DNA of 64,000 nt from Gemmatimonadota bacterium (GCA_034521595.1 JAXHMG010000003.1:1952001-2016000), one strand, 5' to 3'; counted from the first letter of the stretch, positions 320 through 42,937 are shown. Notes: generated by a model not told the origin, from the sequence alone. Made by a program: numbers and translations.

Positions 320-535
320 TCCTACCCCCCGCTGCTCCAACATGAAGGCCACCGCCTGCCGGGGCGTGACCGGACCCATGGGATGGTGCTCGTCCTCGTA
401 GTGCTCGACCAGCACGGACAGGAACTCGAGGCGGTCGTAGCCCTCGGAACCCGCTTGCACGTCGGCATCGAGAAGTCGCTCGATCTCCCCGAGGGCAGCC
501 TCGTACTCGCCCTCGTCCCGGAGCTCGTGAGGGGA
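320..535 (-). pseudogene. HigA-type antitoxin N-terminal fragment (HTH missing)
   Basis: EGEYEAALGEIERLLD...YDRLEFLSVLVEHYEDEHHP...AVAFMLEQRG; similarity stops before the HTH. Confidence 0.7.
398..434. repeat. Direct repeat copy 1 (higA segment); partner 1934-1970
   Basis: gtagtgctcgaccagcacggacaggaactcgaggcgg vs gtagtgctcgagcaacacggacaggagctcgaggcgg, 34/37 identical. Confidence 0.9.
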
Positions 536-636
536 CTGATACGCTCGTCCCTTGGCCCGGCGTGTCAATCGATGCACCAGGCCCCACCGCGCGTCTGCAC
601 CTCTGCCTCCAACAAGCCGGGAGCCATCTCCAGGGA

Positions 637-1815
637 CTACGGGTTGTCGTACATGAAGCGAACGACAGCATCAGCCACGAACAGCTTGTTCTTGGACCGC
701 CCGGTCGCCTCACGAAGCACACCGGCGTCCTCCAGCTTGTGGACGCTGTACGCCGCGGTCTGGTGACTCGTGTCCAGCACGTTCGCCGCATGCTTGATCG
801 AAATGACCGGTGTATGAAATAGGCGGTCGATCAAGTGGATGACACGAGCGGAAGCGCCTTCCGCTTGGAAACGGCCGCGATACTCCTGGCGCTTCGCGAC
901 CAGCGCGACCGTGCGGTCCACGGCTTCCTGTGCGGCCGTATCCACGCCGAGCAGGAAGAAGTTCAACCACTCGGTCCAAGATCCTCGTTGGCTGACGGCC
1001 AACAGCAGGTCTACGTATTCGTCGCGGTGGCGTGCAAAGTACGAGCTCATGTACAGCATGGGGGCGTCGAGCCGCCCGTGCCCACACATCAAGAGCGGGA
1101 TCATGAGCCGTCCGATACGCCCGTTGCCGTCGCGAAACGGGTGGATGGCTTCGAATTGGTAATGGATGAACGCGAGTTGGATGAGGAGAGGTGTGGACTC
1201 CTCGGTTTGCTCCTGATTGATGTAGCGCTCCAATGCAGCAAGAGCAGCGTGCATCTGAATCGGGGGCGGAGGGACGAAGCGGGCTTCCCCGATGGGGTCT
1301 GCTCGATTGCCGATCCAGTTTTGGCTCTCGCGAAACTCCCCCGGCCTGTCACGCTCGCCGCGCACATCCGTGAGGAGGATCTCGTGAAGTTTCTTGATGA
1401 CAGAAAGCGTGAGCGGTTCTTGGCGAATGATATCGAGGCCCTTCTCCATGGCACGGACATAGTTGGCCACTTCTTTCGTGTCGTGGTCCGCCGTCTGCTG
1501 CTCACCGCCAGAGTCTCTCTCATCCGCCTCCAGGAGGAGCAACCGCTCCGGCGTGGTGATGGTGCCCTCGATCCGGCTGGACAGGATCGCTTCCCTGCGC
1601 AGGAGCGGAGAGGAGACCAAATACGGACTGAACTCGGACCCGCTGGACATGCCTTGGAGACGCCCAACCGATGCGGCGGCTCTCGCCAGACGCCGAATGG
1701 TTGAATCCTCCAACCCGAAATCCGTGGGTATTGGACCGGGAACGAACGCGAGTGCTTTTTCAATCGTCGGAGCCAACTGACCCGGGGCGTCGTCGGAAAA
1801 GTCGGAAGCCTTCAA
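637..1815 (-). CDS. Fic-family protein (N-terminal inhibitory helix, C-terminal HTH-like region)
   Basis: Fic motif HPFRDGNGRIGR; SSRIEG inhibitory-type motif; 392 aa. Confidence 0.92.
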   Translation of the reverse strand: MKASDFSDDAPGQLAPTIEKALAFVPGPIPTDFGLEDSTIRRLARAAASVGRLQGMSSGSEFSPYLVSSPLLRREAILSSRIEGTITTPERLLLLEADERDSGGEQQTADHDTKEVANYVRAMEKGLDIIRQEPLTLSVIKKLHEILLTDVRGERDRPGEFRESQNWIGNRADPIGEARFVPPPPIQMHAALAALERYINQEQTEESTPLLIQLAFIHYQFEAIHPFRDGNGRIGRLMIPLLMCGHGRLDAPMLYMSSYFARHRDEYVDLLLAVSQRGSWTEWLNFFLLGVDTAAQEAVDRTVALVAKRQEYRGRFQAEGASARVIHLIDRLFHTPVISIKHAANVLDTSHQTAAYSVHKLEDAGVLREATGRSKNKLFVADAVVRFMYDNP

Positions 1816-1933
1816 GAGAGTGTCCTAGGTTTTTTGGAACCCGAGCTGGAAGAACAAAAAGATACCCCGATATTTTGTACTAGATCCCACTTCCTCGGAT
1901 CTTTTTGGATTGGAACCGAAGACACACCGTAAG

Positions 1934-2012
1934 GTAGTGCTCGAGCAACACGGACAGGAGCTCGAGGCGGCCATACTTCGCCGGTACTTGTTGCCGCCGA
2001 TATTGAAGACCG
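1934..2012 (-). pseudogene. Fused higB and higA micro-fragments; contains repeat copy 2 (1934-1970)
   Basis: Minus strand encodes SVFNIGGNKYR (HigB-type motif) directly followed by YGRLELLSVLLEHY (HigA segment). Confidence 0.7.
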
Positions 2013-2112
2013 ATCGAGATATGTCGGAGGCTCGTCGCCGTAGCGATCCTGATCACGGGCGCCCTTTGGGTTGTTGTTCCCCGAACCGACGAGTCGCATT
2101 ACAATGTATGAC

Positions 2113-2334
2113 ATGAAGACTTCGGCACTGACCATTCGGCTGGACCCCGATCTCGAGGCGCAACTGGACCGCGCAGCCAAGCGGGCCGGGCGCACGCGTA
2201 GCGAGTTCGTACGCGACGCGCTCCGGCGACAGATCGCCCTCGCCGAGTTCGAGAACCTCCGACGGCGCGTCATGCCTTTCGCCGAGGCCCAGGGATATCT
2301 GACGGATGAGGACGTCTTCCACGACGTCTCGTGA
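2113..2334 (+). CDS. CopG/RHH antitoxin
   Basis: MKTSALTIRLDPDLEAQLDRAAKRAGRTRSEFVRDALRRQ; GTGA overlap with the PIN gene. Confidence 0.85.
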   Translation: MKTSALTIRLDPDLEAQLDRAAKRAGRTRSEFVRDALRRQIALAEFENLRRRVMPFAEAQGYLTDEDVFHDVS

Positions 2335-2738
2335 GGGTCTTTCTCGACACGAACGTCCTCGTTTCGGCATTCGGTACGCGAGGGCTCTGCTCCGACGTCT
2401 TTCACGTCGTGCTCGCCGAACACCAGCTCGTCCTCGGGACCACGGTCCTCGACGAGCTCCCTCACGTGCTCACCCGGAAGTTCCGCGCGGCCGAATCCCT
2501 GGCGCGAGAGGCCACGGACTTTCTGCGCCAGCAGGCGCACGTGGTGGAAGCGAGCACCGACGTCGGATTCGAGATCCGCGACCCTGACGATGTGCCCGTC
2601 GTCGGCGAGGCGCTAGCTGGTCAGGTCGATGTCCTCGTGACCGGGGACGCGGACATCCTGGATGTGGCAGACACAGCGCCGATCCGAATCCTGAGCCCGC
2701 GCGCGTTCTGGGAGTCGTTGCGCACGGAAGGTCGGTGA
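2331..2738 (+). CDS. PIN-domain toxin (VapC-like)
   Basis: MRVFLDTNVLVSA...RDPDDVPVV..A..GQVDVLVTGDADIL PIN motifs. Confidence 0.9.
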   Translation: MRVFLDTNVLVSAFGTRGLCSDVFHVVLAEHQLVLGTTVLDELPHVLTRKFRAAESLAREATDFLRQQAHVVEASTDVGFEIRDPDDVPVVGEALAGQVDVLVTGDADILDVADTAPIRILSPRAFWESLRTEGR

Positions 2739-2784
2739 GCGTCAGCACCTCACGTCGCCCCATCGAACTGTCCGGAGCAACCGA

Positions 2785-3930: not shown

Positions 3931-3949
3931 TCGAGCGAGGGCAGGAGGC

Positions 3950-4015
3950 TTTAACGGAGCGCGATGTGATTAAAATCTTGCGCGATAAATTTTAACGCAA
4001 GGACCCTTCGTTAAA
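3950..4015. promoter_or_regulatory. Symmetric AT-rich operator-like region upstream of fic
   Basis: tttaacg/cgttaaa and ttaaaat/attttaa pairs share one dyad centre near 3982. Confidence 0.5.
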
Positions 4016-4190
4016 CTCGATTCAAGTCCCGCTCGACATCCAGGTCGTAGGCGGTCTGAAGATTGAGCCAGAAGCGCTCCGACGTGCCGAAGTACCGCGC
4101 GAGCCGGAGCGCCGTGTCCGCCGTCACCGACCGCTTGCCATGAACGATCTCGTTGATGCGACGGGGTGGGACGCTGATATCCTTGGCCGA
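4011..4190 (-). pseudogene. HigA/VapI-type HTH antitoxin, N-terminally truncated
   Basis: AKDISVPPRRINEIVHGKRSVTADTALRLARYFGTSERFWLNLQTAYDL; the usual HPGE N-terminus is absent. Confidence 0.8.
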
Positions 4191-4282
4191 CGTGTTTGGT
4201 CGATCGGATCCCACTACCGCCGGCAGGCCGGAACCACGATCCTCGCTTCGACCCATCCGCACCTGAAGGAGTCCGCAGGCCC

Positions 4283-5239
4283 ATGAAGGTTCTCGTCACC
4301 GGAGCAGCCGGGTTCATCGGCTCTCATGTCACCGACCGGCTGCTCGCGAGGGGCGACCACGTTCACGGGCTGGATTCGTTCGATGACTTCTATCCCGGGG
4401 AGGTGAAGCGCAATCAGCTGGACGGGGCCATGTCCCGCGCGTCGTTCAGCCTGACGGAGGGCGACATTCGCGACATCGAGATCCTGGAGCGCCTTCCGGA
4501 GGATCTCGACGCGATCGTGCACTTCGCGGCGCGCGTCGGTGTGCGGCCTTCGATTGCGAACCCGGCGCTGTACTCGGACGTGAACGTCACGGGCACGGCC
4601 CGCCTGTTGGAGTTCGCCCGCCAACGAAACATCCGCACCTTCGTCTTCGCTTCGTCCAGCTCCATCTACGGGAACAACCGTAAGGTCCCGTTTTCGGAGT
4701 CCGACCGGGTGGACCATCCGATTTCTCCCTACGCCGCGACCAAGAAGGCGGGCGAGCTCCTCTGCCACGCCGCCACGCACCTGGACGGCATCAGCACGGT
4801 TTGCCTTCGCTTCTTCACGGTGTACGGACCTCGCCAGCGCCCCGACCTGGCCATGCACAAGTTCGCCGGACTTCTTCGAGACGGCACGCCGATTCCGCTC
4901 TTCGGCGACGGCACGTCCCGGCGAGATTACACGTTCATCGACGATGCCTGCGACGGCGTGCTCGCCGCCCTGGACTGGGCGTCGCAGGAAGGGGCCCGGC
5001 ACGAAGTGATCAACCTCGGGGGAGGTGAGCCGATCGCCTTGCAGGACATGATCGATGTCCTCGCCGACGAAATGAACGTCGAGCCGCGCATCCGGCACCT
5101 TCCCCCGCAACCGGGAGACGTCGAACGAACGTTCGCGGATATCGAGAAGGCGGAGCGCCTACTGGGATACCGGCCGCAGGTGGACTTTCGAGTCGGGATC
5201 CGGCGGTTTCTCGAGTGGTTTCACGGCCGGCCGATCTAG
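4283..5239 (+). CDS. NAD-dependent epimerase/dehydratase (UDP-glucuronate 4-epimerase-like)
   Basis: [36 protein letters not shown] motifs. Confidence 0.93.
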   Translation: MKVLVTGAAGFIGSHVTDRLLARGDHVHGLDSFDDFYPGEVKRNQLDGAMSRASFSLTEGDIRDIEILERLPEDLDAIVHFAARVGVRPSIANPALYSDVNVTGTARLLEFARQRNIRTFVFASSSSIYGNNRKVPFSESDRVDHPISPYAATKKAGELLCHAATHLDGISTVCLRFFTVYGPRQRPDLAMHKFAGLLRDGTPIPLFGDGTSRRDYTFIDDACDGVLAALDWASQEGARHEVINLGGGEPIALQDMIDVLADEMNVEPRIRHLPPQPGDVERTFADIEKAERLLGYRPQVDFRVGIRRFLEWFHGRPI

Positions 5240-5530
5240 TTACCCTCGCTCCTTCCAGTATCCCGGTCGCCGACGCAGGTGCATTACAGCCTGAACGACG
5301 ACAACGTCCGAATCCTCGCGGTAGATCACGGCGAAGGGGAACCGCCTGCAGAAGGCTCGACGATACGGACCTTCGAGAGGACTTCCAGCTCCGGGATTCT
5401 CGGAGATGTGTCGGAAGACCCGCTGAGCCTCTTCGAAAAAATCACGTCCCAACCCTGCGGCCCGTTCCTCGTAGAAAGCCGAGGCCTCAGCGACCTCGGC
5501 CCGGGCCAGTGGATGAAGTCGTACTACCAC
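5240..5530 (-). CDS. RelE/ParE-family toxin
   Basis: HPLARAEVAEASAFYE...RRFPFAVIY...AVMHLRRRPGYW. Confidence 0.88.
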   Translation of the reverse strand: MVVRLHPLARAEVAEASAFYEERAAGLGRDFFEEAQRVFRHISENPGAGSPLEGPYRRAFCRRFPFAVIYREDSDVVVVQAVMHLRRRPGYWKERG

Positions 5531-5745
5531 CCAAACCGTTCGCGGATGGAGGTCAGGGCATCTTCGAGCGGGATGGTCTCTACTGCGCCGGACTGGATCT
5601 CCTGATCCCTCCGTCGGACCTCGGCGATCCAGGCAGCTTCGATCTCAGCGTCCTCGTCCAGGCTGGCGATGAGGCGCTCCGCGAGCCGAGCTCGCTCAGC
5701 GGTCGGAAGCTGCAGAAGCTCCTGTTCGATCTGGTCGGTGGTCAT
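5524..5745 (-). CDS. Addiction-module antitoxin
   Basis: LQLPTAERARLAERLIASLD...AWIAEVRRR; overlaps the ParE start. Confidence 0.88.
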   Translation of the reverse strand: MTTDQIEQELLQLPTAERARLAERLIASLDEDAEIEAAWIAEVRRRDQEIQSGAVETIPLEDALTSIRERFGW

Positions 5746-5844
5746 GGTCTTCTCGAGAAGGGTCGAATCGTTCCCAACGATACCTTCCTACACCACACCG
5801 GGCCACTTCGTTGACCCGTGTCCGTTAATACACGGATTTCCAAG

Positions 5845-5904
5845 CTTCAATCTCCCCGACGAAACGGGGCGCCAGAATACGGCGATGCGACGGCTGACGC
5901 CGCC
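5845..5904. repeat. 60 bp imperfect repeat R, copy 1
   Basis: 50/60 identical to 9001-9060; 34/42 identical to 24451-24492. Confidence 0.85.
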
Positions 5905-5993
5905 CGCAGTCGAGCCGGACCGTCCATTCGGTCCAACACCGCGTTGTACTGGGCCCAAGCTTCCGGGTCGGTATCCAGGGGGCGTGAGATCAT
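5847..5993 (-). pseudogene. Small TA-associated protein, apparently truncated where it enters repeat R
   Basis: MISRPLDTDPEAWAQYNAVLDRMDGPARLRA, then reads into repeat R; family assignment from recall only. Confidence 0.4.
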
Positions 5994-6077
5994 GCCAAGA
6001 ATCTACACTCGCCCACGGACACGTGCACGGTAAAGCCCCGGTGCGGCCGGCGCCCCGCGACGGGGTGGAAGGTGCGG

Positions 6078-6374
6078 TCAGTAATGGTATCGGCACATCA
6101 AGAAGTCGATGCGCTCATCCCGGACCAAATATACGAGACGATGCTCCTGAGTGATTCTCCGAGACCAGATATCGGCACCGAGGTGACGGAGAGGTTCAGG
6201 TTTTCCGATGCCGTGAACGGGGTCCCGCATCACGGCCTCGATGAGCTTCAGAACCCGAAGCGCAGTCTTCCGATCGGTATCGACCCAGAAGCGGAGGTCC
6301 TCCCGAAATTCGTCCTGAAATACCGACAGCCGAACGTCCGCGTCGAGATCATCCTTCCGTTTCTTCGAGGCCAA
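6078..6374 (-). CDS. yoeB: Txe/YoeB-family toxin
   Basis: EDLRFW...GIGKPEPLRH...WSRRITQEHRLVY...CRYHY. Confidence 0.93.
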   Translation of the reverse strand: MASKKRKDDLDADVRLSVFQDEFREDLRFWVDTDRKTALRVLKLIEAVMRDPVHGIGKPEPLRHLGADIWSRRITQEHRLVYLVRDERIDFLMCRYHY

Positions 6375-6639
6375 CTTCGCTTCGGAGCTCGTCGAGGGTC
6401 TCGGGGGCTACGCGGGACTCCAGCGAACGCTGAAGTGCACGGAGGAGGCGGCGTGCGTTCTCGGGAGAACGGAGCAAGTGGGCGGTTTCCTCAATGGAAC
6501 GATACTCAGCCGCGGGGAGCAGAACCATTTCTTCGCGGCTCCGGCGAGAGATGTAAACCGGTTCCTGATCGTCCGCGGCTTGGTCGAGCAGCGACGCGAA
6601 GTTCTGTCGCGCGTAGCTATATGAAACCTTGGTGGCCAT
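6349..6639 (-). CDS. yefM: Phd/YefM-family antitoxin
   Basis: VSYSYARQNFASLLD...SIEETAHLLRSPENARRL. Confidence 0.93.
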   Translation of the reverse strand: MATKVSYSYARQNFASLLDQAADDQEPVYISRRSREEMVLLPAAEYRSIEETAHLLRSPENARRLLRALQRSLESRVAPETLDELRSEVGLEETEG

Positions 6640-6652
6640 GGGAAAGCTCCAG

Positions 6653-6677
6653 AGTACTTGTACAAGGACAATGTACA
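6653..6677. promoter_or_regulatory. YefM-type operator (TGTACA palindromes)
   Basis: TGTACA at 6659-6664 and 6672-6677, AGTACT at 6653-6658, just upstream of yefM; E. coli YefM binds TGTACA cores. Confidence 0.7.
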
Positions 6678-6754
6678 ACTACGGCGTATGAGTCAAGGGT
6701 GGGGTATGACGACTCCGGGCGTGGAATGTCAACGCCGCCGCCAGAGCAGGACGT

Positions 6755-7009
6755 TCAGCGGATCGCTTCTGCCTCATCGAGTCGGCGGCGGAGTCCATCC
6801 GGCGCGACGTCGAGACCTCCCGGCCAGGCGATGGTGCCGGAGTCCTCATCGATGTACACCTTACGAAACTCCCTCTCGTCCTCCCACACGGCAAAAACGC
6901 CCTGCCCCACGAGATGGGCCAATGAGACCTCGCCTTCCTGCCCATCCGCGAAGCGGATCCAGACGCGATAGTGCGCCCGAGGTTCGACGGCGACGATTCG
7001 GTCGAGCAT
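6755..7009 (-). CDS. DUF2442-family protein
   Basis: IVAVEPRAHYRVWIRFADG...GTIAWPGGLDVAPD. Confidence 0.85.
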   Translation of the reverse strand: MLDRIVAVEPRAHYRVWIRFADGQEGEVSLAHLVGQGVFAVWEDEREFRKVYIDEDSGTIAWPGGLDVAPDGLRRRLDEAEAIR

Positions 7010-7011
7010 AG

Positions 7012-7272
7012 TCACTCCAGAGGTTCGATTCTGGACAAGGTTTCCTTGGCAACCGCCTCGCGCCAGACCTGCCGTAGTGCCTGACGATGCCGGGCGGCCC
7101 ACTCCGCCACCAGCCCCATCGCCCTCGGCGGCAGATCCCCTCGTAATACCCGCCCATCATCGATTCGGATCACGGCCTCCGCCCCGGCGTACCGCGCATG
7201 GAAATGCGGCGGTGCGTGGTCGTCGAAGTAGACGTAGATCGAGATGCCGAAGAACTCGGAAACCTTGGGCAC
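7012..7272 (-). CDS. DUF4160-family protein
   Basis: MPKVSEFFGISIYVYFDDHAPPHFHARY; usual partner of DUF2442. Confidence 0.88.
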   Translation of the reverse strand: MPKVSEFFGISIYVYFDDHAPPHFHARYAGAEAVIRIDDGRVLRGDLPPRAMGLVAEWAARHRQALRQVWREAVAKETLSRIEPLE

Positions 7273-7354
7273 GATCGGGACCTGAAGAGGAGCGCGTAGC
7301 CAGATTGAGGTCCCACACGCTACTTCCCGGATCGGGGCGTTCCGATGGCAGGAT

Positions 7355-7379
7355 CGGCCGGGGTCGTCCTCGACCTCAC
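7355..7379 (-). pseudogene. Stub of a RelE-like toxin (first ~8 codons)
   Basis: GTG AGG TCG AGG ACG ACC CCG = MRSRTTP overlapping the antitoxin stop (GTGA); the frame ends after ~19 codons. Confidence 0.45.
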
Positions 7380-7594
7380 CCGCGCTCGAACGACAGCGGT
7401 TCGGTCCGACCGTTCTCGGCCGCGATCGCTGCCGCATCCGCGAGGCGACCCAACGCGTCCTGAGATCGTCCGAAGCGCTCGTCCCAAAGGGCTTCGTCTT
7501 CGAGCTCGGCGAGGATCTCCTGCGCCAAGCGATCCTGCTCGCTGGCCGGCAGGGTAGCGGCTCGCTTGAAGGCCTTATCCAGTAGCTCCGTCAT
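7376..7594 (-). CDS. Putative antitoxin (72 aa)
   Basis: MTELLDKAFKRAATLPASEQDRLAQEILAELEDEALWDERF; strong RBS gaggagaggag upstream. Confidence 0.75.
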   Translation of the reverse strand: MTELLDKAFKRAATLPASEQDRLAQEILAELEDEALWDERFGRSQDALGRLADAAAIAAENGRTEPLSFERG

Positions 7595-7754
7595 GGAACG
7601 CTCCGTCTCCTCTCCTCGACGTAGTAACGGTTCCGTCGTCGGGTGTATCCGGCGCGGCCGACCACGGATCCGACTCACGTGGGCCGATTCGAGAATACGA
7701 TGCACTCGGCTTCCGGGCCACGATCGTCCGAGTGTCAACGAGGTGGAGCCATGT

Positions 7755-8573
7755 CTAGAGTGGCGCAGCAGCATGTGCATCCGTGACCTCGGACAGTTCG
7801 AAGTAATCGAGGTTGAGGGTGCTGATCTCCGAATACCTCAAGAGGAATAGGTCTCCTCGGATATCGTAGTAACGATCGTCGGGGAAGTCGTTGCTGGCCG
7901 GTGAGGTTTCGGGGTGAGGGGATCGATCGTCCGTGATGTGTCGGCGATGAGCCATACGCAGGAATATCTTGTCCAACTCGCCATGACGTCCAAACGAGAA
8001 GTCAGCAACCAATCCTCGGTACAAGTACGCTTGATCTCCGTGGCATACGACGGCTGACAGATAGACGCCGTCGATCTCAGTGGAATCATCGGGCATTTCT
8101 GCGAACTGGAGGATCTCGCCAGTCAGTAGGTAGTACCATTCGTTATTGAACCGCAGAGCACGATGCCTAAGATCGAGCTTGAAGTGGCGGACAAGCCAAT
8201 GAGTTCCGACACCAAGCAGTGCTGCGGCGGTGCAGAGGCTGAACAGGTAGCCCGAGATCGGAAGGAGGTGGCCAGAGACCGCGCTCAACGCGGCATGAAA
8301 CGTGGCCGCACTGGAGTCGTACGCCCCACTGAGGAGGAGCAGAACAGATTCAAGGTCGATGTCCCGGCCCCAACTGGGGATGATCGGCACGACCTTGACC
8401 CAGGCGGCGTGTAGAGGAACCGCGAATGCGAGCCCGTAGGCTATCTCATCTGTCAGGCTGCCCAGTGAGGTCGGACTCGCCCATCGCCATGGCCCCCGGG
8501 CATATGAATAGCGGAGGGTGATGCCCGGAAGAGTCAGCAGAAAAAGGAGAAGGACCGGAAAGGCGAGGTTCAC
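7755..8573 (-). CDS. Uncharacterised membrane protein (several TM helices plus soluble C-domain; possibly DUF6338-like)
   Basis: 272 aa; hydrophobic N-half (LLLFLLTLPG), C-half LRFNNEWYYLLTGE...YLYRG...IRGDLFLLRYSEI; lower GC than the flanks. Confidence 0.7.
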   Translation of the reverse strand: MNLAFPVLLLFLLTLPGITLRYSYARGPWRWASPTSLGSLTDEIAYGLAFAVPLHAAWVKVVPIIPSWGRDIDLESVLLLLSGAYDSSAATFHAALSAVSGHLLPISGYLFSLCTAAALLGVGTHWLVRHFKLDLRHRALRFNNEWYYLLTGEILQFAEMPDDSTEIDGVYLSAVVCHGDQAYLYRGLVADFSFGRHGELDKIFLRMAHRRHITDDRSPHPETSPASNDFPDDRYYDIRGDLFLLRYSEISTLNLDYFELSEVTDAHAAAPL

Positions 8574-8585
8574 CTAAGGCACCGG

Positions 8586-8810
8586 CTACCCGTCGGACAT
8601 CACACGCGCCGACCGTGCGGCAGCATACCGCTCAGACTGCTCCCGCTCTGTAGCTATCTCCAAGGGCCCTACATCAGTACGCAGGCTGTAGGTCGTGCTA
8701 CCAACGACGACCTGGCCCCGTCCACCGTTGATCAGGGAGTTCCGAAGCTGATGTCGAGCGCTGGGGCTGCTCAGAACCTTCTGAAGACTCTTGGAAATGC
8801 GACCCTTCAT
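8586..8810 (-). CDS. Small basic hypothetical protein
   Basis: 74 aa; RBS gaggga; ends 12 bp before the membrane gene. Confidence 0.6.
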   Translation of the reverse strand: MKGRISKSLQKVLSSPSARHQLRNSLINGGRGQVVVGSTTYSLRTDVGPLEIATEREQSERYAAARSARVMSDG

Positions 8811-9000
8811 AATTCCCTCACTTAAGCCCGAAGGTACACCGAAAAGTACTTAGGTCTTTGACCAAGGGCAATGAAGCGATCACCGAGCTTCCTGTCATGA
8901 CGCTCAAGGACCCGCATTCCCGACCTTCGATTCCCAGTCGGGACCATGGCGCGCTCGGAGAAGCCGTTCACTGCGCAAAGGGCTTCGTCCTGGTGCCCGC

Positions 9001-9060
9001 CTTCAACCTCCCCCACCCTACAGGGCGCCAGAATACACCGATGGGACGGCTGACACCGCC
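9001..9060. repeat. Repeat R, copy 2 (just downstream of the Wzi-like gene)
   Basis: 50/60 identical to 5845-5904. Confidence 0.85.
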
Positions 9061-9071
9061 GGCACAGCCCC

Positions 9072-10733
9072 CTACCGCGGCCGCCACCGGGCCGAGAGGC
9101 TCAGATTCACGTTCCAGACGTCGTTGCCACGGTCGAAGTAGCGGTTGAGCTCCCTGGTGAGCGTCAGGCCCCCACCGAGATCGAACGGACCCGCGAACAC
9201 CAGCGCTTCCAAGCCGGCGCTCAGTCCCACGTGGTGGCAGCAGAAGTCGAGATCATTCGCCTCGGCGAACGCGTAGTACGCGTCGTTGTCGTGGATGCGC
9301 CGCTCCAGGAGCAGGCGGGCGCGCCCCCAGTCCTCGTATAGCTCAGTGGTGATCACCTGAGCGTTGCCACCGGGCCCCACGTTGGAGCCGATCGCCTGCC
9401 CTTCGTTCGTATAGCCCTGACGGACGATGTGGTGCGCATAGAACACCGGGGTCGGCCGGACCTCGGTCGTGCGGCCGCGCTGGAGGTTGATCATCTCCGC
9501 ACCGACGGCGAGGCGCCGTCCGTCCTCCAGGCTCGTAGCCTTCCTCAGGCCCAGCACGTACCCCTGCGAGTGCTCCGGCTCCATGAAGTAATCGCGGAAG
9601 TTCCAACTGTGGTCGTTGCGCGCCCACTCTCCGTAGAGCTCGAGGCCGCTCTCGGGAAAGACCCAGCGCATGAAGAGGGAGAGCATCTGGTCTTCGCGAT
9701 CGTTCCCCTGAGGGTTGTCGGGCGTCGCGAGGCCCTCCTTGCGCACGCCCTGGAGCACGAGGAAGAAGTCGCCAAGCTCCGGTCCCCCTTCGGGCACGTA
9801 TCCGTAGAACATGCGCGTGGCTCCGAGATGCAAACCCTCGACGAACGCCGGCTGATAGGTGAGGGCGAGGCCCGTGAGGAAACGGTCGGTATCCTCGACC
9901 GAGGGGTCGTAGTGGTCGGACTGGCCGAGACGGCCCCAGACCCACTGCGCCTCCAGGTCTCCAATCCAGATGTCCACCGGGCTCCGCGTACCCAGGAAGC
10001 CGTGCACGATGCCCGGGGCATTGTCGCTCATGAGGATGGAATGATGGATGCCCGGGCCCCACCAGAGGTTGCGACTGCTGAGGCCCAGGGTCACGCCGCG
10101 CGCATCGAGCCGAATCTCGGAGTCGCCGGGGTGCACGGTGGTCACGGTTCCGTCGCCGAACCGCTGCGGCATGTCGATGCGCCGCCAGGGATAGGCCACC
10201 TCCGGCATGCCCGAGGGCGTCTCGGGCGCCAAGTCGAAAGCGGCGTTCTGCGAGACGGTGACGGTGGGCTGCGCCCGCACCGAGAGCCACCCCCAGCGGG
10301 CCCACGCGCCCAGGTCCAGCGCCGTCGTCAAGCCCTTACCCTGCCAGGCCACCCCGTCGTTACCCCCGAACGGATGGCCGGTGTTCGCCCACACACGGGC
10401 CCGAGCTTCGGTCCAGCCTCCGTCCAAGCTCCACGGCGTTCGCACACCCGTATCGCTGCGGTCGTCCCGGCGCATGAATGCGGCGCCGAGCCGGTCCGCC
10501 CACGGGTGACCCGACCGGTCGAGCTGTGGTGGAGCGGCGTCCATCAGCGGCCGGATCGAGAACGCGCTTGGCGAGGCCTCGCCGGCCGGGCTTCGAGGAG
10601 GCGGAGGTAGTCCTCCATGAGGGTCGCCGACGCCGCGGAGGGACTGGGCGGAGGTAGAGACCGGGAGCATGGTCCCGACGCCAACGCCAAGGCGGCACGC
10701 GAGCCAGATTCCGAGCCAGTCGTCGGATGGCAT
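9072..10733 (-). CDS. Capsule-assembly Wzi-like outer-membrane protein
   Basis: NDGVAWQGKG, IDMPQRFG, NLWWGPG..SILMSDNAPG; beta-barrel-like C-terminus; 5' part may contain indels. Confidence 0.7.
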   Translation of the reverse strand: MPSDDWLGIWLACRLGVGVGTMLPVSTSAQSLRGVGDPHGGLPPPPRSPAGEASPSAFSIRPLMDAAPPQLDRSGHPWADRLGAAFMRRDDRSDTGVRTPWSLDGGWTEARARVWANTGHPFGGNDGVAWQGKGLTTALDLGAWARWGWLSVRAQPTVTVSQNAAFDLAPETPSGMPEVAYPWRRIDMPQRFGDGTVTTVHPGDSEIRLDARGVTLGLSSRNLWWGPGIHHSILMSDNAPGIVHGFLGTRSPVDIWIGDLEAQWVWGRLGQSDHYDPSVEDTDRFLTGLALTYQPAFVEGLHLGATRMFYGYVPEGGPELGDFFLVLQGVRKEGLATPDNPQGNDREDQMLSLFMRWVFPESGLELYGEWARNDHSWNFRDYFMEPEHSQGYVLGLRKATSLEDGRRLAVGAEMINLQRGRTTEVRPTPVFYAHHIVRQGYTNEGQAIGSNVGPGGNAQVITTELYEDWGRARLLLERRIHDNDAYYAFAEANDLDFCCHHVGLSAGLEALVFAGPFDLGGGLTLTRELNRYFDRGNDVWNVNLSLSARWRPR

Positions 10734-10781
10734 CGAGTCGATGAGCTTCGTCCGGGCAGCGCCAGATGCGGAGCGACGGCT

Positions 10782-12360: not shown

Positions 12361-12517
12361 GAGTCACTGAAGCGCTGAGGGCGAGAATAAGAGGTAATCG
12401 TGAATGGCGATTGCGTCCGGAAGGTGAAAAGCGGGCCAGCTGATATCGCGAGCATTGTAACGCTCCGGCTGCGACGTGAACACCCCGCGAGCAGAGCTGC
12501 GCGTCTCATCGAGGCCG

Positions 12518-14733
12518 TCACGCCCACCCCAGGTCGTCCTCGTCGAAGCGCTCCCTGCGCTGCACGTCGAGCACGCCCTTCACGCGCGCCGATGGAACGC
12601 TTCGCACCTTCTCCGAGATGTGACAGGTCGCGGACTTCAACCACGAACTCGCCCTTCATGCCCGCCCTCCGCGGCCGCGCGCATGTCGGCGTGCTGGATG
12701 TCGGTGCCCGTGGCGGTGATCGCCTTGGCGATGTCCGAGAGCAGCCCGCGCCGGTCCGACCCCCGCGTGTAGAGCTTCACGAAGAAGCGCTCCCCCTGCT
12801 CCGCCGACCACTCGATCTCCATGCGGCGGTCCGGGTCCTGCGACAGGTTCAGCACGTTCGGGCAGTCCTTGCGGTGGATCGAGACCCCCCGGCCGGCCGT
12901 GATGTAGCCGATCACGTCATCCCCCGGCACCGGCTGGCAGCACTGGGAATACCGGACCATAAGGTTGTCGATGCCCTGGATCCGCACCCCCTTGTCGGAC
13001 CGCCGGATCTTGCTCGGCGATGCTGGCGAGCTGGAGTGGCTCGTGCTCGGCGCGCCTCGTTGACCTCCTCCTCCGGAAAGACCTCCTTGAGCACCGCCGA
13101 CGGACCGATGTCGCCCCGTCCGAGTGCGGCGTGGACGTGCTCCCAATCCGGGTAGTCGAGCTCCTGCGCGGCCCGCTCCAGCGCGGACGAATCCGGCAGG
13201 CTCACGCGCAGCTTCTTGATCTCCCGGTCCAGGAACTCCTTGCCCAGCTTGACGGACTGCTCGTGCTCCTCGGCGCGGATCCACTGCCGGACCCGCTGGC
13301 GGGCCGCTGACGTCTTCACGAAGCGCGAGCCAGTCGCGGCGACGGCGTCTGGCTGCTGCGTAGGTCGAGGATCTCGACGGTGTCGCCGTTCTTCAGCTCG
13401 CGCGACAGGGGCGCGATCCGTCCGTTCACCTTCGCGCCGGCGCAGTGGTTCCCGATCTCGGTGTGCACCGCGAAGGCGAAGTCGATCGGGGTCGCGCCCA
13501 CGGGAAGCTGCTTCACGCTCGCCCTTCGGGGTGAAGACGAAGATCTCGCCCTGGAAGAGGTCCATCCGGAGGAACTCCATGAATTCCTCCGGCTCCGAGG
13601 TTTCCTGCTGCCATTCGAGCACCTGGCGGAACCAGGTGAGGGCCTCGTCGAACTCGTCCTCCTTCCGGCTCCGACCGCCCTCCTTGTAGCGCCAGTGCGC
13701 CGGCGATCCCGTATTCCGCCGTCGCGGTGCATCTCCTCGGTGCGGATCTGGATCTCGTAGCGCCGGCCGCCGGGTCCGAAGACCGTGGTGTGGAGCGACC
13801 GGTACATGTTCGACTTCGGCGTCGGCGATGTAGTCGTGGAACCGCTCCTGGATGGGAGTCCACCGTGATGTGGATCATGCCGAGCGCGGCGTAGCAGTTC
13901 TGCACCGTGTCGGTGATCACCCGCATCGCCATGAGGTCGTAGATCTCCTCGAAGGGCTTGTCCCGCTTCGACGATCTTCCGGTGGATCGACCAGAGGTGC
14001 TTCGGCCGTCCGGTGACCTCTGCCGGGACGCCGGCCTCGTCGAGCAGCTTCCTCCAGGGGCCGCTGGATGCTCCGAGGATCTCGCCGCTCCCGCTCCTTG
14101 CCGGCGCTGCTGGACCAGGCGCCTGAGCTCGTCGTACGCGTCGGGCTCCAGGAACTTGAACGCCGAGGTCCTCGAGCTCCCACTCACCTGCGCCATCCCG
14201 AGCCGGTGGGCGAGCGGCGCGTAGATCTCGCGGGTCTCGAGGGCGATCCGCTGCTGCTTCTGCCGCGGCAGGTGCTCGAGCGTCCGCATGTTGTGGAGCC
14301 GGTCGGCGAGCTTGATCAGGATGACCCGGGCGTCCTCGGCCATCGAGAGGAGGAGCTTCCGGTAGTTCTCGGCCTGGCGCTCGGTCTGGGAACGGAACTG
14401 CACCTTGCCCGATCTTGGTGACGCCGTCGACGATCTGGGCCACCTCCCGCCGAACCGCTCCTCCACGTCGGCGAGCGAGAACTCCGTGTCCTCCACCACG
14501 TCGTGGATCAGCCCCGCGACGATGGACGCCGTGTCGAGCGGAGCTTCGCCAGGATCGTCGCCACCTCGATCGTGTGCTTGACGTAGTCCTCGCCGGACGC
14601 GCGCCTCTGACCCGCGTGCGCTCCACGCCAGGTCGTAGGCCTCGCTGATGGTCGACGTCCAGGCGGTCGGCGTGCGCTCGAGCGCCCGGGCGAGCGGGCG
14701 CGGGATGCCGCGGATGGTCGTGGCGGTGGTCAT
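12518..14733 (-). CDS. relA: Bifunctional (p)ppGpp synthetase/hydrolase RelA/SpoT, frameshifted in assembly
   Basis: LIHDVVEDT (HD), IKLADRLHNMRTL, KSNMYRSLHTTV, TGS TPIDFAFAVHT, CCQPVPGD, C-terminal ACT. Confidence 0.92.
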
Positions 14734-14773
14734 GGTTTCCGATGCCATACACCATGGTGTTGGTTTGGTATCC
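14690..14773. repeat. Two-part duplication: relA 5' end (14690-14733) and an SLC13 segment (14739-14773)
   Basis: 42/44 identical to 15518-15561 and 34/35 identical to 15659-15693. Confidence 0.92.
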
Positions 14774-14835
14774 TCATACCGTCGATCTCATCAGCGGTTC
14801 AACTGCAGGGGCATTGGATCAAGAGAGGTAGCACC

Positions 14836-15093
14836 ATGAACGTCAGCTTGACACCGGAACTCGAGTCCTTCGTGACGACGAAGGTCGGTAGCGGCCTCTA
14901 CGGCTCGCAGAGCGAGGTCGTGAGAGAGGGGTTGCGGTTATTGATGGAGCGTGACCGACTGACAGAGGCGCGGCTGCAGGACCTCAGGGCCGAGGTAGCA
15001 GACGGTCTCGAGCAGGCCCGGCGGGGAGAGTTGATCCCGGGCGAGGAGGTCCGCGATCGGATTCGGCAAAAGAGCCGTGACCGGCGCAAGTGA
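14836..15093 (+). CDS. ParD-family antitoxin
   Basis: MNVSLTPELESFV..KVGSGLYGSQSEVVREGLRLL. Confidence 0.9.
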   Translation: MNVSLTPELESFVTTKVGSGLYGSQSEVVREGLRLLMERDRLTEARLQDLRAEVADGLEQARRGELIPGEEVRDRIRQKSRDRRK

Positions 15094-15141
15094 GGGTCTA
15101 CTACCTCACGCCCAAAGCCGCCACGGGCATAGAGAGCATCA
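15090..15141 (+). pseudogene. ParE toxin stub
   Basis: GTGA-coupled MRVYYLTPKAATGIESI; similarity is then lost. Confidence 0.5.
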
Positions 15142-15392
15142 TGAGGGCGCTCCCCCACCTCGCGCACGCGTAGGTCAATCCCGTCTACGACAGGAACAGA
15201 AAGTTGCGAGAGATCCGAAACAGCACCCACTCCTCGAGAACCTCCTCCAGCTCATCGCGACACGCCTCGAGGCTCTCGGCGTTCGCGTCACTCCCTCCTA
15301 GCGTCCGGGATTTCTCCGTCGTCGTCCCATCCTCTTCCAGAATCTGCGTAGTGGGCACGTCGCATGGCGCCACTCACGTATTCCCGCAGCAT
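15140..15392 (-). CDS. HicB-like antitoxin, frameshifted, no hicA partner seen
   Basis: Pieces MLREYVSGAMRRAHY / ILEEDG / GEIPD / ANAESLEACRDELEEVLEEWVLFRI / PVVDGIDL. Confidence 0.7.
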
Positions 15393-15517
15393 CAGGGCGG
15401 TCCCGGGCACCTGCTTCTCGACCCACATGATACTCCACGGAGCACGATGCAGAGCCAGGGACTTCGAAGGCCAGACACTCCATCTCCAAGCGGATGGCCG
15501 CCATCGCCCGCCGGTGC

Positions 15518-15693
15518 GCGAGCGGGCGCGGGAGACCGCGGATGGTCGTGGCGGTGGTCATAGCCCCCATCGCAGACGGATGAGCACGACGATGCCGGCC
15601 GCGGCGGTCAACGTCACGGGCAAGCCGAGCGCGAACGTAGTCCCGCACGCGGTAGCCACCGATGCCATACACCATGGTGTTGGTCTGGTATCC
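15518..15693. repeat. Resident copy of the SLC13 end / relA start junction
   Basis: SLC13 stop overlaps an ATG (ATGA) giving a dead-end MTTATTIRGLPRPLA copy of the relA N-terminus. Confidence 0.9.
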
Positions 15694-24492: not shown

Positions 24493-24494
24493 TT

Positions 24495-26414: not shown

Positions 26415-27460
<1,046 letters not shown>

Positions 27461-31800: not shown

Positions 31801-31881
31801 TTTTCCTCTCGTTGCGGTGGTCACGATCGTTTTACGTGCCGGGGGTCCAGGCAAGCCGGGACCTTCATCTACCTTGGTGCC

Positions 31882-34440: not shown

Positions 34441-34469
34441 GTGAAAATGAGCTTGGACAAACGCTTCGC

Positions 34470-35580: not shown

Positions 35581-35703
35581 ATCGGTCCCGAGGGACCGAC
35601 TGACTTACCAATCCTCCCCAACCTTGAGGATCTAGCCGGTGGATCAACGTGGCCTACCTATGTTCAAGCCATTGCACGAACATGCGGACCCCATCCCGGA
35701 ATT

Positions 35704-36630: not shown

Positions 36631-36673
36631 AAATTGGAGGTAAAAGAACGGGTTACGATTTCGATCAGGGGGC

Positions 36674-40016
<3,343 letters not shown>

Positions 40017-40246
40017 GACGTGGAGGGGTTCCGTGCCCCCGTGGGGAGATGAAGCGATGCGCGTCCGTCGCGTCGGGCGGATACACCTCGAAGCGCTAAA
40101 GGTCGCGCCGGTGCGGACGGTGGATCAACCCGCGGGGGCGACGGGCACGCTCTTGCCGGACCCCGCGTTGTAGCACTCCGGGGCCAATGGTACATTGTGC
40201 CACCTTTCCGCACATCCGACCACCGGTGATTGGACCGATCCAGCCG

Positions 40247-42624
40247 ATGCCCAGCTCTTCCGTCCTCCCGGCGTCCCGGGCCGTGCGTGCGCTTCTCGGC
40301 GCGTGCCTTCTCGCGCTCGCCGTCGCGGCCCCGCCCGCTCCCGCCGCCGCCCAGCAGGCCCCCTCCCCCGCCGAAGCCCAGCGGCTCATCGAGCAGAACC
40401 CCGAGCTCGTCCGCCAGCGGATCCAGCAGTCGGGCATGAGCGAGAGCCGAGATCCGCTCGCGGCTCGAAGCCGCCGGCCTCCCCAGCGACGCGCTCGACC
40501 AGTTCCTCGGCGGCGGGGTCCGGTGCAGCCGGGCACGGTGTCCGGGTCGGACCTCGCCCAGGCCATGCAGGTGCTCGGGATCGAGGTCGCAGCCGGACGG
40601 GCTGACCGACGTGCCGGTGCAGGCGGGCATGCAGGCTCAGGGCGTCGGGGACGCGCGCCCGCGGACGGGGGCCTCCCATCTTCGGGGTGGAGCAGTTCCG
40701 CGCGCGCCACCTCGCAGTTCCAGCCGCTGCTCTCGGGGCCCGTGCCGAGCGACTACCGGGTCGGCCCCGGCGACCGGCTGGTGCTGGTGCTCACCGGCGA
40801 CGTGCAGCTCGCCCACGAGCTCGAGGTCACGCGCGAAGGGCTTCGTCGTGATCCCCAACGTGGGCCAGCATCTCGGTGAGCAACCTGACCATGGACGGGC
40901 TGCGGCAGCTTGCTCCGCGGGCGCCTCGCGCAGCTGCGTACTCGGGCATCGAGCGCGGCACCACCACCTTCGACCTCACCGTCTCGCAGCTCCGTACCAA
41001 CCAGATCTACGTGATCGGCGAGGTGCGCCAGCCCGGCGCCTACCAGCTCGCCTCGGTCGCGACGGTCATGAACGCGCTGTACGCGGCCGATGGCCCCACC
41101 GACCTGGGCTCGCTCCGCCAGGTGCGAGCTCCGCCGCCGCGACGGCGAGACGGTCACGCTCGACCTCTACCGCTACCTGCTCGAAGGCGACGCCGGCACA
41201 GGACGAGATCCTCGAGCAGGGCGACATCGTCTTCGTCCCGGCTCCGGGAGCAGGCAGGTCTCGCTCGTGGGCTCGGTCGAGTCGGCGAAGCCCGTCTACC
41301 GCAGCCGGCGCCCGGACGACGACCTGCGTCGACGTCGCTGCGCGCGGCCGGAGGGTTCGGCCCCGACGCCCGCCGCAACCGGATCACCATCCACCGGGTG
41401 CTCGAGCCCGGCGACCGCGGGCCGGGCCTCGCCGACCGCGCGGCCGTGGACCTCGAGCTGGCCGCGTCCGACGACCCGTCGGACCCCCGCTACCTGGGCG
41501 GCGTCATCGTGCCTCCGGTGGGCTCCAGCACGGCGACTCGATCGTCGTGGACGAGCGTCGCAGCGCTCGAGGACGCCTATTACGTGACCGTGCGGGCCGG
41601 GTGCAGTCGCCCGGACGCTTCCCCTGGCGGGACGGCATGACCCTGCGCGACCTCGTCGAGCTCGCCGCGTGGACCGGCCGTCGGGCGCCGACCTGCGCGA
41701 GGCGCGAAGTCGCCCGGCTTCCCGACGACCGGGACGCGGGCGAGCTGGCCGAGCTCATGCGCGTGGAGCTCGACTCCAGCTACCTCGAGCTCGGCGACGC
41801 CGACGATGCGTTCCCGGGGCCCCCGTGGCGTCGCGTTCCCGCCCCCCGGCACCGGCCCCGAGTTCGAGCTCGAGCCGTTCGACCAGGTCACCGTGCTGCT
41901 CCAGCCCGACTTCCAGCTCCAGCGCGACGTCGCCAGGTCACCGGCGAGGTGCCGGTGCCCGGCAGCTACACCCTGCGCGCCAAGGACGAGCGCCTGGCGG
42001 ATCTCGTGGACCGAGCCGGCGGGCTGCTCGAGACCGCGTATCCCAACGGAGCCCGCTTCTTCCGGGAAGACAGCGACCTGGACACGGAGCTGAGCCGCGT
42101 GGCCATCGATCTACCCGACGCCCTCGCGGACATCGAAAGCGGCGACAACCTCACGCTCCAGCCCGGCGACTCGCTCCACATCCCGGTCTACTCGCCGACC
42201 GTGGTCGTGTCGAGGGCGCCGTCGAACTCCCCGTCCACCGTGCTCTACCGCGAGGGCGAGGGGCTCGAAGTACTACATCGAGAACGCCGGCGGCTTCCGC
42301 AACGACGCCGACGAGGGCCGGACTGCCGTGCGCTTCGCCAACGGCCAGCGCGAGCTCCGAGATTCAAGTTCCTGTTCTGGTCGAGCTACCCGAGCCCCGG
42401 GCCCGGAAGCCGGATCGCGGTGCCCGACCGAGGACCCCGCCGACCGCTTCGATTGGCGAGGCCTCATCACGGATCTCGTGGCCATCACCGGATCCATCAC
42501 GACCGTGATCGTGGTGATGTCGCGGTCGGGGGGACTTGCATCCACGCCCGGGGTATCGTTGGCGGGCCCGAATCGAGAGCACCGTTCGAGGGAAGCTCAA
42601 GGAGGCGTCTCATGGACCAGCTGA
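40247..42624 (+). CDS. SLBB-domain polysaccharide export protein (Wza/KpsD-like), frameshifted
   Basis: Signal peptide; DYRVGPGDRL, VIGEVRQPGAY, LQPGDSLHIP repeats; hydrophobic C-terminus. Confidence 0.85.
42486..42521 (+). repeat. Direct repeat copy 1 (SLBB gene 3' segment); partner 42902-42937
   Basis: caccggatccatcacgaccgtgatcgtggtgatgtc vs caccggctccatcacgaccgtgatcgcggtgttgtc, 33/36. Confidence 0.9.
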
Positions 42625-42847
42625 TCACCGCCGACCCCAAGATCATGATGGGCAAGACCGTAGTCACCGGCACTCGGATTTCGGTCGAGTGCATCGTGGA
42701 ACGCGTCGGCGCTCTTGGCGAGCCTTGTCGACACGATCTTCCGAAGCTCACCCCCGTCTTACCCGCGAAGAAGCGGTGCTGGCGGCGATTACGTTCGCTG
42801 CGGCGGCGTTGAAAGCAACCGTCGGTGTACCCGACATCCGACGATGA
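42612..42847 (+). CDS. DUF433-family antitoxin, frameshifted
   Basis: ITADPKIMMGK.VVTGTRISVE...HPRLTREEAVLAAITFAA. Confidence 0.8.
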
Positions 42848-42853
42848 AGCGGC

Positions 42854-42901
42854 GTGAAGCTGCTTTGTGATGAGGGAGTTGAACGTCAAGTCGTGGATCG
42901 G
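42854..42901 (+). pseudogene. DUF5615/PIN-like toxin stub
   Basis: MKLLCDEGVERQVVDR, cut exactly at repeat copy 2. Confidence 0.65.
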
Positions 42902-42937
42902 CACCGGCTCCATCACGACCGTGATCGCGGTGTTGTC
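42902..42937 (+). repeat. Direct repeat copy 2 (SLBB gene 3' segment)
   Basis: 33/36 identical to 42486-42521. Confidence 0.9.

Follow-up and report, generated by a model that had tools for sequence, protein, structure and literature searches.

The window analysed here is a 64,000-nucleotide stretch of a Gemmatimonadota genome (G000:C3:1952001-2016000), which is available as a metagenome-type assembly of 3.49 Mb in three contigs with 67% G+C. It is a recombination-prone stretch, rich in toxin-antitoxin (TA) genes, beside a polysaccharide-export locus, and four pairs of short direct repeats (r1 to r4) bracket TA-type cargo in it. The first 17 kb begins with an RHH gene, a higA-like gene, the Fic gene Fic1, an RHH-PIN pair, a second Fic gene (Fic2), an HTH gene, an epimerase gene and a ParE/antitoxin pair, and continues with YoeB/YefM, DhiT/DhiA, two unnamed open reading frames (ORFs), Wzi, relA, ParD, a HicB-like gene and an SLC13/CitMHS transporter gene. 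At 40-45 kb an SLBB/Wza-like exporter, DUF433, a MazE-like gene, an ABM-like gene and UDP-glucose dehydrogenase are found. Three of the repeat pairs are copies of the end of the neighbouring resident gene and lie at gene boundaries: r2 repeats the 3' flank of Wzi, r3 the end of SLC13 together with the start of relA, and r4 the C-terminus of SLBB.

All four pairs listed in an earlier note on this DNA are present and lie far above chance expectation, with E-values from 4.7e-6 to 1.7e-11 in BLAST comparisons with the whole 3.49-Mb genome. The repeats measure 37 bp (r1), 64 bp (r2), 44 plus 35 bp (r3) and 36-39 bp (r4), and the inserts 0.4-3.1 kb. None is a dispersed repeat: r1, r2 and r3 exist in two copies only, with no third in the genome, and r4 has one weaker third match (32 nt, 90.6%). 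As the same note had claimed, the repeat sequences of the four sites are mutually unrelated and the cargo encodes no recombinase. No match to an integrase or transposase family was obtained among 152 ORFs of at least 58 aa, drawn from 1-17.4 kb (115) and 40-44.5 kb (37), in a Pfam scan to which an NCBIfam scan was added. Additionally, the cargo ends carry neither terminal inverted repeats nor a complete attC site, the latter searched with a profile from 16 attC-like copies whose one partial match in the window lies inside the r2 cargo, and a six-frame search with the integron-integrase model gave no match in the window. In all pairs the copies differ by substitutions, not by indels.

The pair r4 (42486-42521 and 42902-42937; 33 of 36 positions identical, E 5.2e-7) is the best resolved of the four and is a true duplication of a gene end within a nested insert. 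Both copies stop exactly at the last sense codon of SLBB, and both versions resemble C-termini found in relatives. In G003, a genome of the same genus, the site is empty: SLBB ends in ..VVTR and a stop codon, a convergent ABM-like gene follows 12 bp on, and neither DUF433 nor the MazE-like gene is present, the window being 658 bp longer. An intermediate state is seen in the metagenome contig L132, where the same gene end is followed by 57 bp and then by an intact MazE-like/MazF pair, with no duplicate. In G006, G009 and G015, the point at which similarity to the MazE-like gene sets in is no more than one or two bases from where copy 2 ends; G009 has the full MazE-like N-terminus with MazF behind it, and only the first five MazF codons are retained in the window. 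Relative to G003, copy 2 lies inside the inserted block rather than at its edge. A single SLBB end occurs in G006, G013, G017, L133 and L134. In G015, which belongs to another genus, the last ~55 bp of SLBB form a tandem duplicate (L019, G015:C1 ~4425250-4425400; 73-bp period, ~80-90% alike) with no cargo between. A pattern scan of the metagenomes for the SLBB end gave 0 matches, and a follow-up protein scan gave 4 loci, 3 of them with the gene end. The earlier statement that the host gene is left intact does not wholly hold at this site, as SLBB has lost its stop codon.

The pair r3 is a clean junction duplication. Its relA part (14690-14733 / 15518-15561) is identical at 42 of 44 positions (E 1.7e-11) and its SLC13 part (14739-14773 / 15659-15693) at 34 of 35 (E 1.1e-7), the two parts being spaced by 5 bp in copy A and by 97 bp in copy B. 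Read along the minus strand, the SLC13 TGA overlaps the ATG of a 46-nt copy of the relA start, and beyond it come ~740 bp of cargo and a 35-bp piece of SLC13, which five unrelated bases separate from the real relA start. The cargo core has a paralogue at C2:265609-266020, 90-98% identical, in which, opposite to the window, parD is truncated and hicB apparently intact. One relA residue is Leu in all 9 relatives compared and Ile in the functional relA here; the relA-start fragment retains Leu. None of the 12 relA loci fetched from relatives has SLC13 upstream, and the upstream sequence (9 compared) differs from locus to locus.

The pair r2 is identical at 53 of 64 positions (E 7.4e-10), its copies being 17% apart. 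Since a similar flank trails the paralogue Wzi-2 near 24400-24450, the repeated sequence belongs with Wzi. Copy A, 3.1 kb downstream of copy B, is chimeric: the Wzi flank reaches to 5908, cassette-like DNA is recognised from 5899, and a foreign ORF is cut at the joint. The cassette-like match and the half attC-like remnant (Table 1) indicate that this genome's cassette pool supplied at least part of the r2 cargo. Directly behind the Wzi stop of G003 stands a DUF2442 gene with 88% identity to that of the r2 cargo over 84 bp, and the flank is missing there; the Wzi site has been remodelled more than once. The r2 repeat was also considered as coding sequence and as structured RNA, and both were rejected. 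The phase of its 11 differences (6:4:1) is not significant and the in-frame peptides resemble antisense junk, and of the 17 pairs in the weak consensus fold just one is compensatory.

The pair r1 (34 of 37 identical, E 4.7e-6) is of another kind. Its copies belong to a higA-like gene and to an isolated fragment on the other side of Fic1, so r1 is probably a mere remnant of a second higA-like gene and is not counted here as an insertion scar. The higA-like gene gave no match in Pfam or NCBIfam, and is named higA by resemblance.

Short-read contigs from a salt-pan metagenome bridge 330-2672 (both r1 copies, 4 differences), 4335-7360 (r2 copy A) and 7426-9291 (r2 copy B) at 97.8-99.8% identity; this metagenome is possibly the source sample and hence not independent. 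The junctions are therefore supported by reads at r1 and r2, not at r3 or r4. None of the metagenome contigs joins across any cargo so as to reveal an empty allele. A contig joint from 14905 to 15154 was rejected as an empty allele, being the paralogous copy on contig C2, and a contig of 216 bp from run X3 matches 15518-15730 only, which is too short to discriminate. The metagenome holders carried at most 0.19 of the words, and no habitat or strain claim is made.

The coding repeats (r1, r3 and r4; 153 nt) contain 12 differences, of which 7 are synonymous and 5 are exchanges among I/L/M/V/F/A, so the claim that coding differences are synonymous or conservative stood in 12 of 12 cases. The synonymous share (7/12) compares with 27% expected (P 0.022). 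That all 12 should be synonymous or hydrophobic-conservative has P 5.6e-5 under uniform random substitution, and 0.02 if half of the changes fell on a selected copy. The differences resemble those between working alleles, which hints at an allelic origin. Codon-position bias alone (5:1:3 in nine differences, tallied by hand) is not significant; the signal lies only in the synonymous/conservative count.

Table 1. Features of the repeat sites, in window coordinates
Feature	Position	Strand	Remarks
higA-like gene (N-terminal domain; HTH part not recognisable)	275..574	-	holds r1 copy A, 398-434; translation ..YDRLEFLSVLVEHYEDEH..; downstream of Fic1
Fic1, SoFic-like Fic/DOC, r1 cargo	637..1812	-	Pfam Fic 2.3e-21, Fic_N 2.2e-20; NCBIfam SoFic 1.7e-49, below cut-off
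r1 copy B, 37-bp higA-like island (..YGRLELLSVLLEHY) upstream of Fic1	1934..1970	-	unrelated sequence on either side
r2 copy A, displaced Wzi 3' flank	5845..5908	-	inner end 5899-5908 overlaps start of cassette-like DNA, 7-8 nt microhomology
3'-truncated small ORF (MISRPLDTDPEAW..)	5909..6027	-	82% identical to C3:1379-1509, just 5' of the attC-like site there
YefM (6349-6675) / YoeB (6078-6371) pair, r2 cargo	6078..6675	-	Pfam 5.4e-22 and 2.1e-32
DhiT (DUF4160) / DhiA (DUF2442) pair, r2 cargo	6755..7434	-	Pfam, NCBIfam
Partial degenerate attC-like remnant, left half only, in r2 cargo	7639..7730	+	nhmmer E 3.3e-5 genome-wide
Two unnamed ORFs (7755-8570, 8586-8807), r2 cargo	7755..8807	-	no Pfam or NCBIfam match
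r2 copy B, native flank	9001..9064	-	starts 8 nt past the Wzi-1 stop
Wzi-1 capsule-assembly outer-membrane protein, r2 anchor gene	9072..10730	-	Pfam Caps_assemb_Wzi 2e-15; 79% identical to G003
r3 copy A, relA part, true relA start (MTTATTIRGIPRPLA)	14688..14733	-	
r3 copy A, SLC13 part, 35-bp fragment (GYQTNTMVYGIG)	14739..14773	-	5 bp upstream of relA start
r3 cargo core	14825..15461		parD 14836-15090 (+); broken hicB-like 15185-15370 (-)
r3 copy B	15516..15693	-	native SLC13 3' end (15659-15693, then 97 bp), then 46-nt relA-start fragment (15561-15516)
r4 copy 1, last 13 sense codons of SLBB/Wza-like export gene (TGSITTVIVVMSR)	42486..42524	+	stop replaced; frame continues 34 codons, into DUF433 start
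DUF433 gene, frameshifted in assembly, r4 cargo	42612..42844	+	Pfam 5.4e-6 on read-through ORF; six-frame 1.4e-6
r4 copy 2, displaced SLBB end (TGSITTVIAVLSR)	42902..42940	+	fused directly to MazE-like gene at ~codon 26
5'-truncated MazE-like antitoxin (PF11455) and first 5 MazF codons, decayed older module	42938..43110	+	Pfam 2.6e-21; intact pairs in G009, L132

The association of close repeats with TA genes was followed through the whole genome. In a chunked self-comparison, close direct pairs numbered 112 and fell into 45 clusters, compared with 28 inverted pairs that fell into 25; the window holds 3 of the 45 direct-repeat clusters where ~0.8 would be expected. At 20 other repeat loci, 231 ORFs chosen by a third-position G+C filter were examined. 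Seven loci are explained by paralogous genes or domains, and seven show nothing clear. Three have non-TA cargo (PadR-MacB between 271-bp repeats and two others), and the remaining three, L028, L042 and L032, have TA genes in or beside the interval. L042 is a classic att duplication, where one of the repeats overlaps tRNA-Arg(CCG) at its 3' end and has TA genes and an N-terminal piece of an integrase for neighbours. At L032, a Phd gene contains one of the two copies. At L028, a 162-bp repeat encloses DUF433, a Phd gene and part of a ParE gene; this locus was rejected as a fifth case, its repeat being partly dispersed, with 5 further copies. TA matches in a six-frame search of the genome comprise 13 PIN, 3 ParE (the window's own ParE was missed), 3 DUF433, 5 Phd and 6 RHH. 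A large share of these few genes lies in the window, in repeat-bracketed intervals or in an attC-like array. The association with TA genes is real but not exclusive, given the PadR-MacB and unnamed cargo, the paralogues, the dispersed repeat and the tRNA att site, and the clustering of TA genes confounds it.

The earlier note knew of no named system of this kind, and in this it was mistaken. The arrangement is the insertion with long target duplication that Furuta, Abe and Kobayashi described in 2010 (PMC2853133), and a model of displacement exists in PMC5361080. In the former, such insertions have direct repeats of >30 bp (46-423 bp), an insert of <20 kb and no mobility genes; the repeats are unique in the genome, often overlap a gene 3' end, and flank restriction-modification units. 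The authors credit the discovery to Nobusato et al. 2000 (Gene 259:99) and propose a break-dependent, virus-like life cycle, the mechanism not being demonstrated. The window agrees in its unique repeats of >30 bp at resident gene ends, in the lack of a mobility gene and in addiction-type cargo. It differs in that the cargo consists of type II TA, Fic and DUF433 genes, with no R and M genes. The copies are 83-97% identical with an allele-like pattern, compared with mostly 93-100% in PMC2853133. Moreover, an empty-site comparator exists at one of the four sites, r4, and that one is nested, and there is no restriction enzyme here to make the double-strand break invoked in that paper. The locus is a long-target-duplication scar extended to TA cargo, of a known kind and not a new system; taken alone, it is a modest case, resolved only in part, from a metagenome assembly prone to error.

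Homology-facilitated illegitimate recombination (HFIR) was proposed by Kirchberger et al. 2017 (PMC5361080) for new effector-immunity modules of the type VI secretion system (T6SS) that displace old 3' ends downstream, and the same idea is noted there for Rhs loci. As in these cases, the window shows a conserved upstream anchor gene, a toxin-type module added behind it and an old 3' end orphaned downstream, with no integrase. It also resembles HFIR in the microhomology at a non-homologous joint where foreign DNA is cut, seen at r2 copy A. Unlike the T6SS and Rhs loci, where the anchor is a variable-tipped toxin gene, the window has ordinary housekeeping or export genes in that role; its displaced pieces measure no more than 35-65 bp and have no evident function, and the pathway in this lineage is proposed from sequence comparison. 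No paper applying the long-target-duplication or HFIR model to type II TA cassettes was found by keyword searching, which cannot show absence. De Vries and Wackernagel in 2002, Prudhomme and colleagues in 2002 and Jackson and colleagues in 2009 reportedly dealt with HFIR or displacement.

Our preferred interpretation, to which we give a probability of about 45%, is that additive recombination at gene ends left r2, r3 and r4 as its scars: the copy next to the gene would have come with the incoming DNA, and the resident end would have been displaced. We infer the donor, the order of events and the recombination pathway as follows. A related strain, or another part of the same genome, would have supplied DNA in which a conserved gene end was followed by foreign cassette DNA, and this DNA would have paired with the chromosome via that gene end. 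Just upstream of the resident gene end, a short microhomology would have allowed an illegitimate join of its non-homologous end. The resident end would thus have been pushed downstream instead of being replaced, surviving as a second, slightly different copy. Such HFIR with displacement would yield the picture of insertion with long target duplication, and no cassette-encoded enzyme would be needed. The cargo, at least partly from the integron-cassette pool, would later have decayed by deletion, with toxin genes lost and antitoxins orphaned. In the simplest history of r4, a MazEF module would already have resided behind SLBB when the DUF433 cassette arrived, either bringing the last 40-55 bp of SLBB along or copying them on entry; a loss of ~135 bp between the displaced end and MazE codon 26, and of most of MazF, would have followed. 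For the other joints, inspection by eye indicates a possible shared stretch of 3-6 nt at r4 and none at r3. Additive recombination at gene boundaries, as proposed earlier, is supported in part, by the copying of neighbour ends at r2, r3 and r4, by the chimera at r2 copy A and by the empty site and intermediate state at r4; it does not extend to r1, which is not shown to be a scar, and at r4 it meets a nested history.

Several observations weigh against this interpretation. The closest comparison genomes are only ~80% identical in DNA, and at that distance no copy can be assigned to a donor and no breakpoint is seen inside the anchor genes. The donor-allele origin put forward in the earlier note has the allele-like differences (P 0.022 and 0.02) in its favour and is not proven. 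Published HFIR usually deletes recipient DNA instead of keeping it. At r2, the divergence of 17% is about this genome's Wzi distance from G003, and with the DUF2442 cargo shared at 88%, plain age could explain it. The events demanded at r4 are three (an older MazEF, the entry of DUF433 and two deletions), and r3 requires an extra one, as copy A lacks the 97 bp of copy B and has 5 unrelated bases instead. Moreover, single-copy empty sites, which relatives supplied at r4, were not met at r3: relA lies within 3.5 kb in 0 of 80 SLC13 loci of other species, and a junction-spanning match was obtained in 0 of 300 other genomes of the order. At r2, G003 is in a different state. Tallies over the order's genomes, including this junction search, take in the unpublished G025, G052 and G116, on which no claim depends. 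The codon test is weak as well, with 12 differences, a 'conservative' class defined after the data were seen, repeat ends set by the limit of similarity, and first-position changes in NTN codons that are conservative by the code itself.

The repeats could also have arisen in place, if cargo entered a double-strand break with staggered or resected ends and 40-180 bp of resident sequence was copied to both sides during repair synthesis. The copies would have been identical at birth and have diverged since, and this would be insertion with long target duplication in its strict sense. We regard this as unlikely. It would fit the definition of Furuta et al. (2010) in repeat length (>30 bp), insert size (<20 kb), absence of mobility genes and position at gene 3' ends. 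At 95-97% identity r3 could be young, the divergence of r2 is paralleled by old, partly shared cargo, and the tandem SLBB-end duplicate in G015 has no cargo. However, one copy of each pair should then drift freely, against which stand the 12 of 12 synonymous or conservative differences (P ~0.02), and the chimeric microhomology joint of r2 copy A with its truncated foreign ORF suggests an illegitimate join, not fill-in. The allele-like differences and this one chimera favour the import of a donor gene end by one-sided homologous recombination over staggered-break fill-in. It is unlikely, too, that repeats and cargo have no causal link and that the region is simply a decaying hotspot in which deletions, paralogous antitoxin genes, small tandem duplications and short conversion patches leave gene fragments, some of which flank TA genes by chance where these are dense. 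Such an origin suits r1, whose copy B is an isolated higA-like fragment beside a Fic gene, Fic2 likewise having an HTH gene upstream. It also suits the repeat copy within the Phd gene of L032, the 7 of 20 other loci explained by paralogous genes or domains and the 7 more without clear cargo, and the abundance of truncated genes in the cargo. Yet r2, r3 and r4 copy adjacent resident gene ends, not TA genes, exactly at gene boundaries; the empty site and the intermediate state at r4 fit insertion between copies; and the window's 3 of 45 repeat clusters exceed expectation.

Integrase-borne islets leave att duplications at tRNA or gene 3' ends, and the window shares with them imperfect direct repeats of a gene 3' end around foreign genes, including TA modules. 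The pairs might be attL and attR of decayed site-specific integrations, through a tyrosine recombinase once present in the islet and since lost, or through an integron-type integrase acting in trans at secondary sites. This appears quite improbable to us. The tRNA-Arg(CCG) case of L042 shows that TA genes in this genome do accompany an integrase fragment, some 30 attC-like sites and an IntI-like recombinase by the main array are present, and cassette-like DNA occurs in the r2 cargo along with half of an attC-like site. Against this, the repeats of the four sites bear no relation to one another, the 152 ORFs include no integrase fragment, the window has no tRNA and the cargo ends no whole attC, and the IntI-like gene is 1.9 Mb off and below its family cut-off (213 vs 265 bits). 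To our knowledge, integron insertion at secondary sites leaves no target duplication. Insertion sequences of the IS1634/IS1549 type are known for long, variable target duplications of tens to hundreds of bp; unlike them, the cargo here has no transposase and no terminal inverted repeats. PMC2853133 mentions this type as 'the transposon of Mycoplasma'. Integron gene cassettes can carry TA operons (Van Melderen and Saavedra De Bast 2009, PMC2654758), and this genome agrees in that its attC-like array is accompanied by an IntI-like gene and includes ParE and Phd genes, and in an r2 cargo that is partly cassette-like. It departs from that pattern in that the four sites have no attC at the cargo ends and the flanking repeats are copies of host genes. 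An artefact of error-prone long-read metagenome assembly is a highly improbable source of the repeats. Many single-base frameshifts in essential genes, including SecA and relA, would speak for it; however, each copy of r1 and of r2 is bridged by short-read contigs at 97.8-99.8% identity, substitutions rather than indels distinguish the copies, and related states occur at these sites in relatives.

How small defence and addiction modules settle between core genes without a mobility gene is an old question, and integration hotspots that lack mobile-element genes are common. For restriction-modification systems there is a catalogue of long-target-duplication scars, whose mechanism was never resolved; the present locus gives a mechanistic clue. 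Should this clue hold up over many genomes, it would turn a descriptive category into a testable pathway. A bolder proposal, which we hold to be quite improbable, is an integrase-free life cycle of small addiction cassettes (TA modules, like restriction-modification units) in this lineage. The cassette between two gene-end copies may loop out as a circle by recombination between them, and this circle, or a linear fragment taken up by a related cell, may re-enter a naive allele via 35-180 bp of homology. The donor's version of the gene end may travel along, and the addiction effect of the toxin may fix the insertion. Were this so, the allele-like differences between copies would be a direct trace of movement from strain to strain.

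About 30 copies of a 175-185-bp imperfect palindrome with attC-like ends occur in the genome. Seventeen form one array at C3:14253-32707 (L146), 0.55-3.9 kb apart, with ParE and Phd genes inside, and further copies lie at C3:607-1695, C1:729-6719, C3:332426, 967980, 1009914-1025252, 1449691 and 1504996-1518733. At C3:34259-35458 (-), 1.5 kb past the array, is an IntI-like tyrosine recombinase that scores 213 bits on the integron-integrase model (cut-off 265) and about equally on XerA. The array looks like a chromosomal integron with unusually long attC sites. Additionally, a dispersed 55-85-bp repeat in L028 (781-867, C3:328182-328268) has copies at C3:21149, 1322696, 1507561, 2458241 and 2832137, in attC-like arrays and TA islets, with no Rfam match. 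In L033 (C3:971365-976767), a PadR regulator and a MacB/FtsX-type permease stand between 271-bp direct repeats that are 98% identical, which may be a recent long-target-duplication or tandem-duplication event with non-TA cargo.

Elsewhere in the window are sulfate-activation genes, the second Wzi, an IS3-type transposase, SecA, an extra PIN gene, rml genes and a ribosomal-protein operon. Synteny with G003 extends across most of the window, and a 22-kb stretch has no counterpart there. Frames are split into several pieces in relA (12637-14752), SLC13 (15298-17324), SecA (36760-40016) and SLBB (40611-42809), and single letters within relA are left out in contigs from other runs. These splits are most likely single-base indel errors in the assembly. 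As the essential SecA could hardly be broken four times, frameshifts were not taken as decay, and calls of 'broken' genes are unreliable. In the window, Rfam gave 0 families at gathering score and the tRNA scan 0 genes. The IS3-type transposase (rve, HTH_21; 26442-27424, in two frames) is the sole transposase of the window; it is distant from all four repeat sites, adjoins the second Wzi and lies inside the 22-kb stretch without G003 counterpart. The further PIN gene, at 45854-46494 between UDP-glucose dehydrogenase and the rml genes, has a Phd-like match alongside and no flanking repeat, and its position is conserved in G003. Across the genome, ~15 pairs of perfect 30-35-bp inverted repeats with a spacing of 270-360 bp (for example C3:264505-264785, 2347959-2348233 and 2579043-2579315) have the look of copies of one small element resembling a miniature inverted-repeat transposable element (MITE).

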